Positions 4,486-55,799 are shown, counted from the stretch's first letter. The stretch: DNA of 64,000 nt from an uncultured Acidobacteriaceae bacterium (GCA_963838445.1 CAWIRT010000044.1:47509-111508); one strand, 5' to 3'. The notes: a model not told the origin generated them from the sequence alone. Translations and numbers: made by a program.

Positions 4486-5405
4486 AGTTGCTGCCTCCTT
4501 ACAACCAAGAGGCTGAACTTCGACTGAGACGCAAGTGTCAACGCGATGTAAGGATGTTGTCATCTGTTTGTCGAATATTTGTCGCGTATGGAATGGATCA
4601 CGGCTGCAAGGCGGAGGCAATCGAAGATTCGATAATGTATTCAAAGGCGCGGCCCGCTTGACCGGAAGCGCACCGATGCCCCCTGACAGAGACAATCGTT
4701 TAAGGAAGCCGCTCTACTCGATTGGGGGCTCGGCATTATTTCAATCTGACGCATGCCAATGTCGATATCACACACGCAGACCGGCATAATCGGAAGATTT
4801 TAGTAGAGACTGTGCCGCTCCGCTGCCTCGTGTTCACTCACGAATGCACCACGCGCTGCCTAGCGTTTTCTTCACGTGAAAACAGTTTGTTGCCTTACTG
4901 CTGGCTGCGCGCGAGAGGGACAGGGTTTCCGCTGTTTCGGGTGGTTTGTTCGGCTATCCTGCTGCGCCGGCAGTCGACGCCGCAGCGGCTCGAGAGGAGA
5001 GGCGGCCGTCCCCTGACCCACGCCAGGAACGTAATTGCATTGGCCCCTCGCCGCGAGAGTTGTGGCCCGCGTTGTCTTTGCATTTGCCGGCACTCCTAAC
5101 CGATCGACAGGCTCGGGTAAAGCTGATCGATGTCATCGAGTTCTAAAGCCGCGCGCTCCTTTCCCATAAAACGGAGGACACTCGACGCGTGAGTGGCATG
5201 CATATACCTGATAGACGGTTATCGGCCAAAAACTGGTTACACCTCCCGCCCGTGCCCTGATTTTCAGGGTTTCAGTCTTGCCCTGTCGTGGGCGCACGTC
5301 TAGCCCTCGTCTAGCCCTCGTCTAGCCCGCATTTCTAACAAACCCCGGGGAAAACGAATAAACGAATCGCTGCCGGTAGTGAGATCTCCATGGGTAACGA
5401 CTGAC

Positions 5406-16084: not shown

Positions 16085-16801
16085 GACTCCCCCTTGCGGC
16101 CGGTCGTGGAGTCTCTACATTTTTAGAGCGTGGACTAGCCAAATTTTTGGTGGGACATGCGAATCCTCGGGCGCGACCGCGCTGGTGCTTTGTATCAGGG
16201 CGCGACTTTAAGTCGGGCCGCTAAGGCTCAATAAAAGGTCTGGGCTTTAGAGTCTGCGTGAAAACGCCATGTTCAACCCAGTCCCGCAGGGACGCCTGAG
16301 CTTAGCCCAGGACGTTAGTCCTGGGTAGGATTTGAAACAGATTCAAGTCCCGGAGGGACGGCTGAAACAGGCTTCAAAGGCAGAGACAAACTCCGGACGA
16401 AGGGCACGGCTTCACAGGCTGCGGAAAAACTCGGTTTTTTGGTAGGCCGGGGATTTATCCCCGGCGCAAACGCAATGAAATCATCGTGGGCTTTAGCCCC
16501 TGGGGTATGCGTTCCTGCCCAAATCCGACTTTTCCAGCCGTGCCGAAAATGGCCTGCACACTTGAGGGCTTTTAGCCCCTGCGCTTTTCTCCTGGCCAGG
16601 CAAGTGAAGCAGTAGGAGTACTACTCGGCGCTATCCCGCGAGTTCTGCCTTGATAAGTTTCCGAACGATAGAGTGGCGATGCTCCAAAAAGCTCTGCCCA
16701 TCCCGTGTACGCACTTCATTCTGGATCGCGCCCATTCTAGAGGAAGATGGCCGCAGGGGCGAAATCCCAATTTTCTTTCCGTCTTTTACGGCCCGATTAA
16801 A
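16085..16801. repeat. cluster of interspersed palindromic (REP-like) units
   Basis: Hairpin units gtcccgcagggac, cccaggacgttagtcctggg, gtcccggagggac and ccggggatttatccccgg recur at 47.5, 55.1 and 63.7 kb. 16085-16216 is an inverted paralogue of 18112-18235. Confidence 0.75.
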
Positions 16802-18111
16802 GAGGCTGCGGAAAAAGTCACTAACAAGGGACTTTTCGGTTGGAGAGCGTTTGTACTAAGAAGGAAGTATGCGAGGAGCCGATCAGAATCAGGGTTTTAT
16901 GTACAGTTACGTGACGATGGAGCGCCGGATCCGTGTGAATCATCCTGCTCGAAAGATTCGAGCGTTGGTGGACCGTGCGCTTGAGCGGATGGATTCAGCG
17001 CTGGATGGGATGTATGCGTCTAACGGCCGTCCATCGATTGCTCCGGAGCGTCTATTACGGGCGCAGCTTTTGATGGTTTTGTACTCGATCCGATCGGAGC
17101 GTCAGTTGATGGAGCAGCTGGATTACAACCTGTTGTTCCGGTGGTTTGTGGGTCTTGAGATGGACGATGCGGTGTGGGACGTGACGGTGTTCACCAAGAA
17201 CCGAGGTTTGATTGCCGGCCAGGCCAGTCAGCAGCTACTGGTGGCAATAGTGGAAGAGGCGCGTGGTCAAGATCTGCTGAGCGAGGAGCACTTCACGGTA
17301 GACGCGACGCTGATCCAGGCCTGGGCTTCGGCACAGAGCTTCAAGGGCAAGAAGAACCCGCCGCCTCCTGGCTCCGGTTCGGGGAAGAAAGGGGAGTTGT
17401 TGCTGCGCGACAAGGTGGAATCCAGCACCGATACGGATGCCCGGCTGTATAAGAAGGCGTTGGCGGACAAGGCGGTGCCGAGCTATCAGGGTCACGCGTT
17501 GATGGAGAACCGTAATGGGTTGATCGTGGCGGCGGAGGCCAGCCGGTCCTCCAATGCTGCCGAACGCGAAGTAGCGCTGAAGATGCTGGATCGGGTGATC
17601 GGATCAAAGTGGAAACGGCTGGACAAGAAGGTCACGCTCGGCGGCGATGCGTTGTATCAGGAAAAGCAGTTCCTCCAGGGGCTGCGCGAGCGCAAGGTGG
17701 CTCCGCATATCCACGAATACATCAAGGGCAATCTGGACATGAACTGCCTGACAAAGAGAGAACGAAACGACAAACGGCGTGCCATCAGTCACAAGAAACG
17801 CAAGCTGATCGAACGAGCCTTTGGATGGAGTAAATCCGATCGGCAACTAGGGCAGGTCAAGCTGCGTGGCCTGACGCGTGTGGACTGGTTCTACCGGCTC
17901 ACCATGGTCGCTTACAATCTGACGCGGATCAGCCGGCTCGTCCCGCTTCACACCACGGCCATCTGAGCCAGACGTGTGTCTGGATCCCGGCAAAGCCGCA
18001 GCAGAGAGTCGCAAAACTCAATAGAAACGCACCCAATATCCTCGGCAGAAACTGAAAATGAACCACAAAGGCCCCAAAAACAGCCAAAAGTCGAAGTTTT
18101 TCCGCAGCCTC
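16802..18111 (+). mobile_element. IS5-family insertion sequence (1310 bp) with 15-bp terminal inverted repeats and a 4-bp TAAA target duplication
   Basis: IR-L is gaggctgcggaaaaa (16802-16816). IR-R is its exact reverse complement (18097-18111). TAAA flanks both ends (16798-16801 and 18112-18115). The element has a single transposase ORF. Joining the flanks recreates a sequence matching the paralogous repeat at 16178-16220. Confidence 0.8.
16869..17966 (+). CDS. IS5-family DDE transposase (InsH/DUF772 N-terminal domain)
   Basis: 365 aa. N-terminal block GRPSIAPERLLRAQLLMVLYSIRSERQLMEQLDYNLLFRWFVGL is typical of the IS5/IS1182 transposase N-domain. Candidate DDE residues lie in FTVDATLIQA, LGGDALYQEK and IERAFGWSK. 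Confidence 0.85.
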   Translation: MRGADQNQGFMYSYVTMERRIRVNHPARKIRALVDRALERMDSALDGMYASNGRPSIAPERLLRAQLLMVLYSIRSERQLMEQLDYNLLFRWFVGLEMDDAVWDVTVFTKNRGLIAGQASQQLLVAIVEEARGQDLLSEEHFTVDATLIQAWASAQSFKGKKNPPPPGSGSGKKGELLLRDKVESSTDTDARLYKKALADKAVPSYQGHALMENRNGLIVAAEASRSSNAAEREVALKMLDRVIGSKWKRLDKKVTLGGDALYQEKQFLQGLRERKVAPHIHEYIKGNLDMNCLTKRERNDKRRAISHKKRKLIERAFGWSKSDRQLGQVKLRGLTRVDWFYRLTMVAYNLTRISRLVPLHTTAI

Positions 18112-18240
18112 TAAAGTCGTGCCCTGATACAAAGCACCAGCGCGGTCATTCCCCCAGACCCGGCCCATTCCGCAGATTTTGGTTCTGACCATGAGAGATG
18201 TAGAAACTCTACGACCCGGCTTGCGGCCGAGTCGTGTAAG
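18112..18240. repeat. right-hand part of the REP-like unit interrupted by the IS
   Basis: taaagtcgtgccctgatacaaagcaccagcgcggtc... is the reverse complement of 16178-16216. Related copies lie at 47797-47822 and 60369-60394. Confidence 0.7.
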
Positions 18241-18256
18241 AAATACCTGAGTATGG

Positions 18257-47228: not shown

Positions 47229-47469
47229 TGATACAAAAGGTCCCTCTTCTAGCCTAACAGGCGAGCTCTGGATGGCAGATCACGGCCAGGCGGAGTGGCG
47301 ACAGAAACCCTCCTGCGAATATCCCGGCCGGCGCGATAAAGGAAGTGACCAGCGCTGTCATCTTCCTAAGGGGCGGAAGAGGAGCTATTGAATGCGGCAA
47401 AGGTAATGTCTTCTTCGCAGGTTGAGTTGCCGAACGCTGCCAAAGCCGAACTGAGAGGGAAATAGCGCC

Positions 47470-47830
47470 GCAGGGGCTAAAGAGGCTGCGTGAGAACTGG
47501 GACTACGAAATAGTCCCGAAGGGACGGCTGAACTTAGCCCAGGACGTCAGTCCTGGGTTGGATTCGAAAGAACGACCCAGCCTGCCCCGGCCTGCCGTGG
47601 GTCCCGCAGGGACGGCTGAAAATGGGCCGCGACGCAATGCTCCTTCAGTCGTCCCTGCGGGACTCAATCATGTTTCATGATGTACCCAGGACTGCGTCCT
47701 GGGGTAAGTTCAGCCGTCCCTTCGGGACTAGTTTGGAAACGGGGTGCTCACGCAGGGGCTAAAGCCCTCGTCCTACCTCTTTTTCGGCACGACTGAAGTC
47801 GTGCCCTGATACAAAGCGCTTTTCGAAATT
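47470..47830. repeat. nested palindromic REP cluster (~300 bp, centred near 47632) plus one flanking unit
   Basis: 47511-47557 is the reverse complement of 47685-47730. Inner pair: 47601-47626 with 47642-47663. Outer pair: ctgcgtgagaac with gtgctcacgcag. ggcacgactgaagtcgtgccctgatacaaagc at ~47790. Confidence 0.75.
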
Positions 47831-50494: not shown

Positions 50495-50642
50495 GCCGGC
50501 TACCGATCGCAATCTCATGGCGGTGAAGTCTTTCGCATCTTGTAAGGGCACCCAGTCTGCATCATGCAGGCCGTACTGGAACAGTGCTGGTGGCGAAGAC
50601 ATCGCAGTCGTTCGTGGCACCGGCAGCTCGCGCTGCCATCGT

Positions 50643-51065
50643 TCATTTCCAGGCGGCCAGCAGGGCCCCGATGATCAGCAAACCGACTAACCAATAGCCG
50701 CTATTAATGATGAAGAGCTTGATGGGGCGGCCTTCGTAGATGCCCTGAGGAAACTGTGTTGCGGCGAAGAATCCGAGCCAGCTAAGAAAGCCGACAAACG
50801 CGCCCATGCCGAGCGTGGAGGCTCCAGACCAGAGAACGAAATGGAGCAGCACGAACGCAACCAGCACGTCTCCAATGAACGAGGAGATCATGCCCGCGGC
50901 AAGGCCCTTTTTGGGACCGGTGGGGACGATGCCGAGAGCTGCCATCCAAGGCTTGGCGAATAGGCCTGGGGAGTACCAGATGGCACCGAGGAACCACAGG
51001 ATCAAAGCCGATACAAGCACGGCCCAGTGATTGATGTGGTGCAGGTGGTGGATGGACAGGTCCAT
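50643..51065 (-). CDS. DUF1761-family small membrane protein
   Basis: 140 aa with 4 TM segments. INHWAVLVSALILWFLGAIWYSPGLFAKPWMAALG is typical of DUF1761. Confidence 0.65.
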   Translation of the reverse strand: MDLSIHHLHHINHWAVLVSALILWFLGAIWYSPGLFAKPWMAALGIVPTGPKKGLAAGMISSFIGDVLVAFVLLHFVLWSGASTLGMGAFVGFLSWLGFFAATQFPQGIYEGRPIKLFIINSGYWLVGLLIIGALLAAWK

Positions 51066-51187
51066 ACGCTTCTCCTAACTAGAGTTGTGGGGTATGCAGG
51101 GCTGGGATCGACTTTGCCCCAGGAGCAGACCCACTGTCAAACTTGTTCGGGAAGTACCACAACGCCGCAGCGATCTGCCGGACGCAT

Positions 51188-51890
51188 CCATGGCGAGAGC
51201 GCACGGCCGACGGAAATGGTGCGTGATATGCGTGGTATGCGTGGTAAGTACGGGCTCCTTGGCCTGGCGGCAATCGAGACCGGGGCGGCCATGGCGAGAG
51301 CATGGCCGACGGAAATGGTGCGTGATATGCGTGGTATGCGTGGTAAGTACAGGCTCCCTGGCCTGGCGGCAATCGAGACCGGGGCGGCCATGGCGAGAGC
51401 ATGGCCGACGGAAATGGTGCGTGATATGCGTGGTATGCGTGGTAAGTACAGGCTCCCTGGCCTGGCGGCAATCGAGACCGGGGCGGCCATGGCGAGAGCA
51501 TGGCCGACGGAAATGGTGCGTGATATGCGTGGTATGCGTGGTAAGTACAGGCTCCCTGGCCTGGCGGCAATCGAGACCGGGGCGGCCATGGCGAGAGCAT
51601 GGCCGACGGAAATGGTGCGTGATATGCGTGGTATGCGTGGTAAGTACAGGCTCCCTGGCCTGGCGGCAATCGAGACCGGGGCGGCCATGGCGAGAGCATG
51701 GCCGACGGAAATGGTGCGTGATATGCGTGGTATGCGTGGTAAGTACAGGCTCCCTGGCCTGGCGGCAATCGAGACCGGGGCGGCCATGGCGAGAGCATGG
51801 CCGACGGAAATGGTGCGTGATATGCGTGGTATGCGTGGTAAGTACAGGCTCCCTGGCCTGGCGGCAATCGAGACCGGGGGCAGCCATGGC
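51188..51890. repeat. tandem array: 7 copies of a 99-bp unit (copies 2-7 identical, copy 1 degenerate)
   Basis: Unit: ccatggcgagagcatggccgacggaaatggtgcgtgatatgcgtggtatgcgtggtaagtacaggctccctggcctggcggcaatcgagaccggggcgg. Copies start at 51188 (101 bp, variant), then 51289, 51388, 51487, 51586, 51685 and 51784. The array decays at 51879-51890. The ORF track shows five overlapping ORFs with 33-aa periodicity. Confidence 0.95.
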
Positions 51891-52180
51891 AGGCGAAGGG
51901 ATGGCGCTCGTTTGGGCCGCAGCCCTGGCAAGAGATTTATATGGGGTAAGACAACGAAAACGCCGGAAGCCGCCCATACCTGTATATATGCAGATTGGCT
52001 CTACTTTTCACTAAAAAGTTCCCGGCGGCAATCTTTGGTGGGTTACCAATGCGCCCACAAGCCTGCCGCTCTTTCAGATTGGCGCCAAGCGCGTCCCGAA
52101 CTGCGCCTGACTTCGTTGAGCGTCCTGAAGGTAACTGCAGGCGAAAACACTTCTCACGAGTGAGAAAACGCCATTGTGGT

Positions 52181-54646
52181 TCACTCCATGCGCAAGGCTC
52201 GCATAGGTTCCACCGAAGCAGCGCGACGGGCGGGCGCGAGAGCAGCGCACGCCGATACCAATATCAGGACAGCGATGGCGAACCCAAATGCCAGTGGATC
52301 GAAGGGCGAAACCTGGTAGAGCATCGAGCCGAGGGAGCGCATGGCGAACAGCGTGAGCGGAATGCCCACGGCAAGACCGAGACCCAGCACCCAGAGACTC
52401 TCGCGCATCACCATGACCAACACCCGGGTGCGGCTTGCGCCCAGCGCCATGCGGATCCCGATTTCCTTCTTACGGCGATTGACCCGGAATGAGTGCGTTC
52501 CATAAAGGCCGGTGGCCACCAGCAGTGCGGCCAGCATGCCGAAGAATCCACCCAGCGCGGCGAACATGCGCTGCTGCTCATACGATTTATCAAATTGCGC
52601 TTGCTGCGTCATCGGCTGTTCGAGCGCCACGGCCGGGTACAATGCCGCGATGGCCTTCCGCATCGCCGGGAGCATTGAGATGGCATCCGCATGCGTACGT
52701 ACCTCAATGTGCATCGTCGCCAGGTCCGATTCCTGCATCGCCGCGTAATACGCCATGGGCGTCGGCTTCTCGTCGACGCTGATGTATTTGCTATCTTGCA
52801 CGACGCCCACGATCATCTGCGTACTCCCGCCTGAGCCGAGCACATGGCCCAACGGATTCGTGGCGCCCAGATATTTCTTCACGAATGTCTCGTTCACGAT
52901 GGCAACCGCACGCGTTTGCAGCGTGTCGGCATCGGTCACATCCCGTCCGGCCAGAATCGGAATGCCCAGGGTTTGGAAGAAATTCGGGCCGACAGTATCG
53001 GTGCGAAGAAGAGCACCTGGTTGCAGCATTCCGTCCACAGTCAGACCGTTGTTGTCGGCCCATCCCGTTCCCGGGCGGTTCCTCACCATCGAAACCGATT
53101 CCACACCCGGCATTTGCTTCAGGTGATCGAGCAGTTGGGGGTAAAACACATGCCCATCGACGCTGGCCTGTGGGGTGACGCCGAAGACGAGCAGGCTTTC
53201 CGCCTTCATCCCCAGCTTCTGCGTGGCATAGTTGCGCAAAGTGCTCAGCAGCAGTGCCGCCGCCATGAGCAAGACCAGGCAAATCGCGATCTGCGTCGAC
53301 AACACTACGCGTCCCGCGACCACGCGATTGCGTGTGGCGGTCGAGTTGGAGGAAGTTGACCGCAGGACCCCAGCCACTGGCGCGCGCACCGCGCCCCACA
53401 GTGGAACCAGGCTGAACGTCCATGCGGCCAGAACCGAAATAGCCAGCGTGAACGACAAAACCGTGGCATCTGGATTGAGACCAGTTTCGATCCCCGACCA
53501 CGCCCCCAGGAGGCGCGTCGCCCAAATCGCAAACAGCCATCCCAAGAGTGCGCCCGTACCCACCAGCAAGAGGCTCTCACATAACAACTGGCGGAAAATG
53601 ACTCCCTGCCTCGCGCCCATCGCCATGCGCAGGCTGAACTCATGTTCGCGTGTGGCGTTTCGTGCCTGCACCATCATGGCCACATTGGTGCACGCTAGCA
53701 GGAGCACAAGGCCCACAAGGCCCATCAGCATGCTCACGGGCGTGCGATATTCCTGGTTGGAGTCTCCGATGCCGCGCGCCGAAATGAAATCAAGCAGCGG
53801 CTTCCATTCCCTGGGATCAACATCGCCCATGGTTTGCTTGACCACGCCAGCAAGTGTGCCGGAAAGCGCCTGCTGTGCCTGCATCGGCGACACACCCTCA
53901 CGCAGCCGGGCGATCATGCGCAGACACCACCATTTGGGCGAACCGTACAAGGTATCAAATTTGACCGGCTGACCCCACGCATTGAATTCAGGACGATTCT
54001 GCAACGGCATCCAGAAGTCGGTGGCTGTGCCCGGCTCGATCCCTTTGAATCCGTTTGCCGTGATCCCGACAACGGTAATCGGAACTCCCTTGATGTAAAT
54101 GGTCTGCCCCACAACCTCCGGATCCCGGGCGAAACTCCGCGTCCAGTAGTCGTGGCTGAGAACTACGATGGCCGCGTGATTTTTCTCGTCCTCGAACGTA
54201 AATCCGCGGCCCCGCTCCATCCGTACGCTCAGGCCAGAAAAGAAATTGCCGCTCACCTCTTCCCCTGCGGCCGATTCTGGAAGCTTGCCATGGCGAACAG
54301 CGACACTCCGATTGAAACTGAGTGGTACGTACCCGGTTAGATCCTCGAAAACATCCGTCCGCTGCCGTAGCGCTGCAAAGACCGGCTCGGAGAATGGGGT
54401 GTGCCGGTCACCGGTTTCATCTGCGCCCGGCGGCTGCGATTCTCCATTCGCTAGGTGCACATAGTAGAGTCGGTGCGGGCGCGCTACGGGCAGCAGTCGC
54501 ATCAGCACGGCATTCATCACGCTGAAGACGGCAGTATTCGCGCCAATACCCAGCGCAAGCATCACGACCACAACGGCTGAGAACATGGGCGTCCGGCACA
54601 GTTGCCGCAAAGCGTAGCGAACATCCCGGGCAATTGATCCCATCAT
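52181..54646 (-). CDS. ADOP-type duplicated FtsX/MacB-like permease (intact)
   Basis: GGAGG lies 3 nt upstream of ATGATG (54646/54643). ARDVRYALRQLCRTPMFSAVVVVMLALGIGANTAVFSV..., two FtsX domains (EHEFSLRMAMGAR; KEIGIRMALGASR), ending SVEPMRALRME*. The ORF is uninterrupted. Confidence 0.85.
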   Translation of the reverse strand: MMGSIARDVRYALRQLCRTPMFSAVVVVMLALGIGANTAVFSVMNAVLMRLLPVARPHRLYYVHLANGESQPPGADETGDRHTPFSEPVFAALRQRTDVFEDLTGYVPLSFNRSVAVRHGKLPESAAGEEVSGNFFSGLSVRMERGRGFTFEDEKNHAAIVVLSHDYWTRSFARDPEVVGQTIYIKGVPITVVGITANGFKGIEPGTATDFWMPLQNRPEFNAWGQPVKFDTLYGSPKWWCLRMIARLREGVSPMQAQQALSGTLAGVVKQTMGDVDPREWKPLLDFISARGIGDSNQEYRTPVSMLMGLVGLVLLLACTNVAMMVQARNATREHEFSLRMAMGARQGVIFRQLLCESLLLVGTGALLGWLFAIWATRLLGAWSGIETGLNPDATVLSFTLAISVLAAWTFSLVPLWGAVRAPVAGVLRSTSSNSTATRNRVVAGRVVLSTQIAICLVLLMAAALLLSTLRNYATQKLGMKAESLLVFGVTPQASVDGHVFYPQLLDHLKQMPGVESVSMVRNRPGTGWADNNGLTVDGMLQPGALLRTDTVGPNFFQTLGIPILAGRDVTDADTLQTRAVAIVNETFVKKYLGATNPLGHVLGSGGSTQMIVGVVQDSKYISVDEKPTPMAYYAAMQESDLATMHIEVRTHADAISMLPAMRKAIAALYPAVALEQPMTQQAQFDKSYEQQRMFAALGGFFGMLAALLVATGLYGTHSFRVNRRKKEIGIRMALGASRTRVLVMVMRESLWVLGLGLAVGIPLTLFAMRSLGSMLYQVSPFDPLAFGFAIAVLILVSACAALAPARRAASVEPMRALRME

Positions 54647-54879
54647 CGACCTCCAGGCGCACAACAGCGATGGTCTCATGGAGAATGTATGTCGTGCCAG
54701 ACGCAGGTTACATTCAGTGACCTATTTCGTGGGACGGTCGTGCTTGCTTCACCATCCTGAAGGGAAGCCCTTTCAAGTAGCAATCTTTCCCAAACGATGT
54801 GGGCGCAGCATTGTGGACAGCATCGGAAGAATTCATTCGCATTCGAGGCTGAGGAAGGTTATGGAACGAAAGGCACCGT

Positions 54880-55435
54880 TCCTCAGGGGCTAAAGCCCAT
54901 CGTTCTGTTTCAATGTATGTACGGGCTGAAGCCCGTACCCTTCAGAGAGGAAGGTACCTCAGGGGCTAAAGCCCTCACCAGCCGGAGTGTTTTGCGGCAC
55001 GGCTGAAGCCGTGCCCTTCGTTCATCAACGCAACTCGAAACTCGTTGCCAACCTAATTTTGTTCGGGCAGGCTCTCTTCAAACCAATCAACAAGCTACAT
55101 CGAAAAAAAAGCAGTTGATCCGTTAATTTGGACAGCTCTGAAGCTCAACCGTCCCTGCGGGACTGGAATTCGAAAATGTTCAGCCGTTCCTTCGGAGCCA
55201 TAGGAGAAGCAAAAGGTGCCGCACCTACGGCGCTCGATCATCATCGTCAATTGACACCCAGCCCTTCCGGGCTGGGCTGACGTTTGGCGGGCCGGCACCG
55301 AGCCTAGGGAGCGGCTGGATCCTTTTCTGCGGTTCTCTCACCCAGGAGCTAGTCAAGCTTTGGACAAGACTGAAGCTCAACCGTCCCTGCGGGACTGTTC
55401 GTCATTTCGGATCCCACCCGAGGACTACGTCTATA
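54880..55435. repeat. REP-like hairpin cluster
   Basis: Hairpins: ggggctaaagccc, gtacgggctgaagcccgtac, ggcacggctgaagccgtgcc and cccagcccttccgggctggg. A ~33-bp direct repeat (ctgaagctcaaccgtccctgcgggactg) occurs near 55136 and 55369. Confidence 0.7.
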
Positions 55436-55799
55436 AGCACTCACTCGTTTGGAATGTTTTTCTTCAAAGCTCCCACGAAATCGTCATATTGAGAGCTTGT
55501 GACTTTTTTGATTTGGCCTGTAGTTTGTGGCTGGAAAACTGGGGAGAGCATCTGCTAACAAGCATCGCCGGGGTTCCTTCGGCTACGCTCAGGACAGGCC
55601 CTTCGACTGCGCGCCATAAGCCGTCCGTTATGCGATAGATCCGCGCAGCGCTTCGCTCAGGATGACGGCTTTGTGCCGGGGGTAAAAAGCATCCGGTTAG
55701 CTACGCAGAAAACACGAAAAGATCGAAAAAGTCACAGGCTCTCAGGATGACGATTTCGTGGGAGCTTTGAAGAAAAACATTCCAAACGAGTGAGCGCTT
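55436..55799. repeat. MITE-like non-coding palindromic element (364 bp) with 48-bp perfect terminal inverted repeats
   Basis: 55440-55487 (ctcactcgtttggaatgtttttcttcaaagctcccacgaaatcgtcat) is the exact reverse complement of 55747-55794. The arms continue imperfectly for ~40 bp. The internal segment 55492-55664 recurs at 63828-64000. Confidence 0.75.

Follow-up and report, generated by a model that had tools for sequence, protein, structure and literature searches.

A non-coding 99-bp tandem array of variable copy number, probably young, built on a dispersed 42-nt core of Acidobacteriaceae

REP units are imperfect palindromes that are arranged in alternating orientation and linked to RAYT transposases. 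Most MIRUs are located in operons, with small ORFs overlapping the genes next to them, and the repeats of Borg elements are locus-specific and pervasive in one extrachromosomal element. The MIRU-VNTR loci of Mycobacterium tuberculosis were reportedly described by Supply et al. in 1997 and 2000, and the perfect tandem repeats of Borg elements are said to have been treated by Schoelmerich et al. in 2023. The BOX elements of Streptococcus pneumoniae and S. suis have the layout boxA-(boxB)n-boxC, the number of boxB modules differs between strains, and their open frames can resemble nascent genes (PMC3049150). Judged by behavior, BOX elements are the closest analogue of the tandem array described here and of the repeat family to which its core belongs.

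The array lies in a stretch of 64 kb from an uncultured Acidobacteriaceae bacterium, which was analyzed as a whole and is referred to here as the window. Its position had been given in an earlier note on this DNA as lying between the start of a DUF1761 gene (51065, minus strand) and the stop of an ADOP permease gene (52181, minus strand), and domain searches confirmed both neighbors. The features of the region, in window coordinates, are:

50643..51065, minus strand: DUF1761 gene (PF08570, E 3.1e-26), downstream of the array in the direction of transcription
51066..52180, no strand: DUF1761-ADOP spacer, homologous between species except for the amplified segment (alignments to L094, L126, L124 and L125)
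51135..51140, minus strand: TTGACA, possible -35 box of DUF1761, read from the sequence, 48 nt from the array edge
51188..51194, plus strand: left CCATGGC direct repeat, at the left edge of the duplicated segment
51188..51288, plus strand: first unit, 101 bp, degenerate, bearing the original left flank junction
51207..51248, plus strand: first of seven 42-nt cores, CCGACGGAAATGGTGCGTGATATGCGTGGTATGCGTGGTAAG, with three tandem 9-mers RTGCGTGRT
51306, 51405, 51504, 51603, 51702 and 51801 (starts), plus strand: the further cores; all seven have 0 mismatches to the family consensus
51289..51783, plus strand: five 99-bp units, base-for-base identical (exact string comparison; TRF)
51784..51882, plus strand: sixth 99-bp unit, final 3 nt GCA vs. 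CGG, where it merges with the right flank
51884..51890, plus strand: right CCATGGC direct repeat, the "decaying partial copy" of the earlier note
51978..51996, plus strand: second conserved motif, ACCTGTATATATGCAGATT, 140 nt after the last core, with one match in the window
52181..54679, minus strand: ADOP-type permease gene (MacB_PCD and FtsX, each twice), its stop codon facing the array

Run over the whole window, TRF placed the array at 51188-51890 (period 99, 7.1 copies, 98% matches, no indels, score 1351), in agreement with the 99-bp period read previously, and it is the sole large array there. Its head-to-tail copies and unit length are those of a VNTR or minisatellite (unit of 10-100+ bp). 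A 34-nt stretch of the unit occurs seven times in the 64-kb window, always inside the array (0 expected by chance), and the 99-bp unit itself was not found elsewhere in the window. The first unit differs from the internal ones by a 2-nt insertion (GAGAGCGCACGG vs. GAGAGCATGG) and two more substitutions, as expected from the degenerate 101-bp left copy that had been recorded at 51188-51288. Of the six units previously read as identical, five (51289-51783) are so, whereas the sixth deviates in its final 3 nt. CCATGGC is found at each edge of the ancestral segment, and successive units meet at the junction GGCGG/CCATGGCGAG. The only other tandem repeat that TRF detected in the window is a short one at 5297-5328 (11 bp x 2.9 copies, CGTCTAGCCCT).

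Each 99-mer combines the 42-nt core with 57 nt of local filler, of which 17 nt precede the core as left flank and 40 nt follow it as right flank. The core reads CCGACGGAAATGG followed by three 9-mers RTGCGTGRT and AAG, and what had been described as a 9-bp duplication with a related preceding copy is indeed this 9-mer triplet, GTGCGTGAT ATGCGTGGT ATGCGTGGT. Twenty-one of the 22 9-mers in the window lie inside the array, three per core. The hairpin ggccatg-N7-catggcc that had been noted in each unit is present in the sequence and belongs to the filler. The array was rightly held not to be a CRISPR array, as one and the same filler separates the cores throughout and there are thus no unique spacers; the core-only arrays at related loci also have just 1-3 nt between cores.

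The core is found at many other sites. We scanned one genome per species with the 9-mer triplet (RTGCGTGRT x3, 27 nt) and recovered dozens of loci in a handful of Acidobacteriaceae MAGs, including MFD02671.bin.3.52, MFD10064.bin.2.45, MFD06714.bin.3.179 and SMAG_U4860; the same scan also brought in unrelated 9-bp microsatellites of other phyla. TRF on the related loci delimited a common core of 42-43 nt, CCGACGGAAATGG-TGCGTGATA-TGCGTGGTA-TGCGTGGTAAG(T). With up to 8 substitutions allowed and JGI loci included, there are at least 91 non-redundant core sites, 54 of them single and 37 in arrays of 2-10 copies. The periods of these 37 arrays are 43-45 bp (n = 22), 52-53 bp (n = 8), 61 bp, 84-85 bp (n = 3), 96 bp, 99 bp and 118 bp; by TRF, the related loci have periods of 43-46, 52, 84-85 and 119 bp. 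The previous statement that the array resembles no other repeat therefore holds within the 64-kb window, but fails beyond it, where the core forms a large dispersed family in related genomes. When used as the query in a scan of JGI soil metagenomes, the core recovered 22 short contigs with the same flank families; the locus-specific filler gave 0 matches in the metagenome scan. Viral contig, plasmid and phage collections yielded no match, and a literature search on an Acidobacteria repeat family of this kind found no relevant paper. Overall, this is a modular repeat family of Acidobacteriaceae for which we found neither an Rfam model nor a paper.

Two observations concern the contigs that carry the core. 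One family B element (L013) is on a contig (CAWHOK010000004.1) of MFD01213.bin.2.110, which was binned as "uncultured Alphaproteobacteria"; its flanks are identical to those in the Acidobacteriaceae genome MFD06714, and this contig is probably mis-binned. Among the 22 core-holding JGI short-read contigs (L102-L123), at least 8 begin or end within or beside a core, and the core family is a frequent breakpoint of short-read assemblies.

The core is carried by distinct flank families (A at 32 loci, B at 8 and C at 4) and in further contexts besides, and most loci have common flanks at both sides of the core. Family A has a consensus of ~320 bp that is more than 90% conserved and includes 1-10 cores; a family A profile (nhmmer) matches each of the seven window cores (E ~1e-16). 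Cores in unrelated flanks are often identical to the consensus (0 mismatches). A second motif, ACCTNTATATATGCRGATT, follows the last core of most family A elements after ~133-137 nt; the distance ranges from 102 to 205 nt, with 37 nt in L076. This motif occurs once per core-bearing locus (37 loci in all), and at these only together with the core. The window's copy of the motif is kept in L094, L124 and L125 and is matched weakly by the family A profile (E 0.019). Other family A modules gave no nhmmer match in the DUF1761-ADOP spacer, where only the TATATATGC motif was found beside the cores. The presence of cores and a weak motif match, without a match to the other modules, indicates that the window's copy is an old, diverged relative of family A.

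By eye, the 32 aligned family A copies have no clear inverted repeat or duplication at their ends, and their boundaries merge into other mosaic modules. A small family A ORF (MRVFRLQGGEKW...), in the same frame as the best one of the window, was considered and rejected, since the consensus is frameshifted relative to L017 and periods of 43/44 bp break the frame. In L020 (1-282) it is the right module of family A, 142 bp long, that occurs twice in tandem (2.0 copies, 98% identical, TRF), showing that non-core modules can amplify too. The 9-mer also expands by itself (L077 7221-7289, with 7.7 copies; L016 5341-5382; L025 3146-3181; TRF), which implies a hierarchical instability of the 9-mer, then the 43-nt core, then longer units. 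Alternating purine-pyrimidine tracts were seen by eye at 51219-51245 (and in every core, as RTATGCGTG x3) and at 51981-51992; the latter, the TATATATGC tract, has ACAC before it in family A. Such tracts may be prone to Z-DNA formation or easy melting, and might act as a source of instability or as a feature recognized by a protein.

A search of the window with Rfam gave three Acido-Lenti-1 matches, all away from the array; one further stretch is noted beside them:

47512-47557, minus strand: Acido-Lenti-1 (Rfam)
47685-47729, plus strand: Acido-Lenti-1 (Rfam)
16280-16325, minus strand: Acido-Lenti-1 (Rfam)
18097-18256: further stretch noted with this group

The three matches place the window in Acidobacteria. 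They coincide with nhmmer matches to the partly conserved flanks of family A at 47472-47573, 47670-47768 and 16240-16333, and two of the copies, those at 47.5 and 47.7 kb, are inverted relative to each other. This coincidence indicates that Acido-Lenti-1 acts like a REP-type hairpin module beside core elements in mosaic clusters.

To place the core sites relative to genes, we called genes with a codon-log-odds caller trained on the long ORFs of core-bearing loci, which recovers the genes of the window and rejects the array ORFs. No core site overlaps a called gene at the 67 analysable loci (of 69). The flanking genes are convergent at 14 sites, tandem at 23 and divergent at 10 (25/50/25 expected at random), close to a random intergenic placement. 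No recurring neighbor gene (transposase, Rep or regulator) was found around the 69 loci; ADOP permeases adjoin 12 of them, but these constitute a very large paralogue family. Readings of the element as a sigma-54 or ECF promoter were discarded by eye because the spacings are unsuitable, and an origin-like reading (9-mers plus an AT-rich tract) because there are dozens of copies per genome.

The DUF1761-ADOP spacer was then compared with its orthologues, in which the core is arranged as follows:

L001, ENA assembly, ~99% identical: 4.1 copies of a 99-bp unit
L002, ENA assembly, ~99% identical: 6.1 copies of a 99-bp unit
L124, JGI contig, ~94% identical: 4 copies of a 100-bp unit, with one 109-bp interval via an extra 9-mer
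L125, JGI contig, ~94% identical: 1 copy, with the same filler
L094 and L126, sister species, genes 87-91% identical: 1 core, with homologous left and far-right flanks and unalignable core-adjacent filler

Conspecific contigs with flanks ~99% identical thus hold 4, 6 and 7 copies, as assembled, and the locus is variable in copy number, one of the possibilities named in the earlier note. The single copy of L125 could be a repeat that collapsed in short-read assembly. Between the window lineage and the ~94% lineage, which differ at ~6% of sites, the core is identical at 42 of 42 positions, and it is identical at 41 of 42 to that of the sister species, where the filler beside it defies alignment. 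Comparison of the filler in the window lineage and in the 94% lineage gave 6-7 differences, mostly common to all units of one array, which implies concerted evolution or re-expansion from one unit. The recent expansion or ongoing homogenization that had been suggested is supported by these lineage-specific substitutions common to all units and by the single copy in sister lineages. The duplicated segment is bounded by short direct repeats, which are CCATGGC in the window (51188 and 51884) and GCATCC in L124 and L125.

Changes in core number are also seen at other sites of the family. In eight orthologous pairs between MAG species the element is kept at its site and the core number differs (4 vs. 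8, 1 vs. 3, 3 vs. 4, 2 vs. 1 twice, 1 vs. 2 twice, and 1 vs. 4). The last of these pairs, L072 and L098, again involves a long unit, of 119 bp, made of the core plus flanks. Copy-number change is a family-wide behavior of core sites, and the family is kept at orthologous sites in species that are ~90-97% identical.

The surroundings of the array vary as well. The conspecific contig L001 (4351-4693) lacks ~3 kb of the ADOP permease region (window 52669-55728), which are replaced by ~340 bp, with a 220-aa FtsX fragment remaining; this is a deletion polymorphism directly adjoining the array. In L002, also conspecific, a DDE transposase (DUF772/DDE_Tnp_1) at 137-1543 lies beyond the ADOP gene and is followed at 1612-1882 by 270 bp that are 89% identical to window 47468-47757, which holds the Acido-Lenti-1 pair. 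This arrangement suggests a repeat-mediated rearrangement. In the sister species (L094 1900-3700; L126 5456-6865), the ADOP gene is separated from the core element by two extra minus-strand genes, of the 3-dmu-9_3-mt and Mem_trans families. The window has neither of them, which indicates an insertion or deletion at the same spacer.

We consider it likely, with good confidence, that the array is a young non-coding VNTR that grew from one dispersed core copy by microhomology-seeded duplication, followed by slippage or unequal recombination. The ancestral DUF1761-ADOP spacer held one 42-nt core module, the expandable middle part of the modular intergenic repeat elements that are dispersed in Acidobacteriaceae genomes. 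In the window lineage, a 99-bp segment would have been duplicated between the two CCATGGC direct repeats, and the duplicate would then have been amplified via replication slippage or unequal homologous recombination. The copy number is still changing, judging by the 4, 6 and 7 copies assembled in near-identical genomes, and the units evolve in concert.

Such an origin can be set beside the described systems. Like BOX, family A consists of dispersed intergenic composites with end modules around a middle module of ~45 bp that is tandem in variable number; in both cases module number differs between strains at one site, longer arrays vary more, and open frames on both strands are liable to gene calling. 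In S. suis one boxB occurs between end modules A/C or E/F, just as a single core occurs here within families A, B and C. BOX elements, however, come from a different phylum. They have terminal inverted repeats and target-site duplications, no clear trace of which was seen by eye in family A, and their RNA is predicted to be strongly base-paired, a structure not found here; moreover, the window has amplified the core together with 57 nt of local flank rather than a bare module. The array is thus likened to BOX by the way it works rather than as a member of that family, sequence homology not being expected across phyla. It resembles MIRU-VNTRs in that dozens of intergenic loci hold direct repeats, 40-100 bp long and in tandem, whose copy number is polymorphic between close strains, and in having unit length classes that differ by the presence or absence of internal segments; unlike MIRUs, core sites are random in position and orientation relative to genes and lack a conserved ORF. 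The BIME-2/REP elements of enterobacteria are likewise mosaic and intergenic, undergo tandem amplification and vary in copy number by strain, and core elements are also intermixed with hairpin repeats (the Acido-Lenti-1-like modules). Membership in REP/BIME was rejected, as the core is not palindromic and all copies in the array are direct and strictly head-to-tail. Borg repeats resemble the array in being near-perfect, direct and fast-evolving, and in that some units are divisible by 3 and can create repeat peptides. In contrast to them, the array is built on a common dispersed core in a bacterial chromosome and is the sole large array in 64 kb.

Two of the alternatives would give the array a product. 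The earlier note had found the unit's TGA and TAA stops in a single plus-strand frame with five frames open, which is correct, and this confinement of the stops accounts for the five overlapping ORFs (262-378 aa). A young protein of 33-aa repeats, translated in the gene-caller frame (MVRDMRGMRGKYRLPGLAAIETGAAMARAWPTE), would fit these open frames and a period divisible by 3; in L001 and L002, gene calling has placed ORFs of 212 and 224 aa over the array, and the best frame scores marginally above zero (+6.4). That score nevertheless corresponds to 0.017 per codon, against 0.17-0.21 in the neighboring genes, and coding scores are ~0 or negative. The core alone is open in five of six frames, so that the long ORFs are a by-product of core composition. 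Periods in the family are seldom multiples of 3 (7 of 37), the orthologous array of L124 has a 100-bp period, and the sole ORF called on that strand of the L124 spacer is 58 aa long and lies to the right of the array. Past the array, the tail of the ORF shows no coding conservation. Among 5.8 billion proteins searched there were two matches, both of them ORF calls over the same spacer (one conspecific, one from the sister species); Pfam gave only sub-threshold noise for the five ORFs, and a cluster listing gave no family. The very young repeat protein proposed earlier is thus close to refuted, and we give it hardly any credence. Very improbable, too, is the proposal that the spacer gives rise to a structured RNA with tandem repeats, such as an sRNA or sponge array. 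Each unit does contain a 7-bp hairpin, and the Acido-Lenti-1 motifs in the window show that the genome has small repeated RNA-like motifs. Yet the hairpin has 0 compensatory changes and is broken in the L124/L125 lineage, Rfam gave no match on 50500-52600 even at E up to 10, and in 17 related loci it found nothing at the gathering threshold except one tRNA away from the core sites. Folding of two units gave z-scores of +0.59 and +1.75. The core has folding energies of -2.6 and -0.2 kcal/mol (z +0.29 and +1.40) and is less structured than shuffled sequence, and the family A element (z -0.87 and +0.66) lacks the strongly base-paired structure of a MITE. A consensus scan of 50500-52600 found no full promoter and no terminator, and the random orientation relative to flanking genes also argues against a transcribed element.

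The other two alternatives concern the DNA itself and its assembly. The array could be a cis-regulatory or architectural set of protein-binding sites, in which the 9-mers (21 here) would be putative direct-repeat sites for a binder such as a ribbon-helix-helix protein, a nucleoid-type protein or a domesticated transposase, and copy number would tune DUF1761 expression or local DNA architecture as a contingency switch. The very strong conservation of the core across flank families and species agrees with this, as do the polymorphic copy number, the second motif linked to the core at ~135-140 nt at most loci, and the position of the array 48 nt upstream of TTGACA on the DUF1761 strand. This TTGACA is kept in L094, L124 and L125 and is a possible -35 box of DUF1761. 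The 9-mer is 10-fold over chance in the window, an excess wholly due to the array; outside it, a single isolated 9-mer is found in 64 kb vs. 2.25 expected by chance, and there is thus no sign of a regulon. Moreover, core sites favor neither promoter-containing spacers nor an orientation (14 of 47 lie between convergent genes), the 9-bp spacing is off the helical repeat, and the neighbor genes of 69 loci include no candidate binding protein linked to the core. In an iteron or centromere-like array, direct short repeats would be bound by a cognate Rep or Par protein encoded nearby; each core does have three 9-mers, and no common neighboring gene family was found. On balance, we regard a binding array as unlikely. 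An assembly artefact, with the repeat over-expanded or collapsed by the assembler, could be invoked because copy numbers vary between assemblies, an occasional unit in L001 and L002 is variant or 98 bp long, possibly through Nanopore errors, and short-read contigs are often broken at the core. However, the array recurs in four independent assemblies, from the same lineage or a very closely related one (7, 6, 4 and 4 copies), with unique flanks intact. Its edges are also as expected, in that the first unit is degenerate and the last one passes gradually into the flank. The related MFD MAGs are Nanopore/metaFlye assemblies, and 0.7 kb is well below their read length (PMC12313526). An artefact is accordingly barely conceivable.

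Returning to the young non-coding VNTR, the array itself probably has no dedicated function, and its main consequence is most likely an altered DNA length just upstream of the putative DUF1761 promoter. It is a by-product of repeat instability that opens no new mechanism, and an ordinary kind of feature, new to a group in which such repeats had not been described. Its composite unit, a dispersed core plus local filler, is not visible from one window alone and was missed in the earlier note. The five long ORFs that span it are artefacts, although gene callers already deposit them as hypothetical proteins (P0001 and P0004).

The core calls for a further explanation. Its conservation exceeds what neutral drift would leave and, as far as comparison of sequences goes, points to a sequence-specific constraint, which might be imposed by a binding protein, a mobilizing enzyme or gene conversion; a purely neutral account fails to explain it. 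Likewise, the second motif, kept ~135-140 nt from the last core at most loci, suggests a function. The core family provides ready VNTR markers for strain tracking in soil metagenomes, and the core is a concrete sequence with which a binding or mobilizing protein can be tested. More speculatively, and with a rather small chance of being correct, the core and the TATATATGC motif could be putative recognition sites of a trans-acting protein (mobilizing, architectural or regulatory), and the arrays, such as the 21 9-mers upstream of DUF1761, heritable, rapidly tunable platforms that would alter the expression of their neighbors. To our knowledge, no phase- or contingency-type mechanism has been known in slow-growing soil bacteria; if true, recognition of these sites would constitute one.
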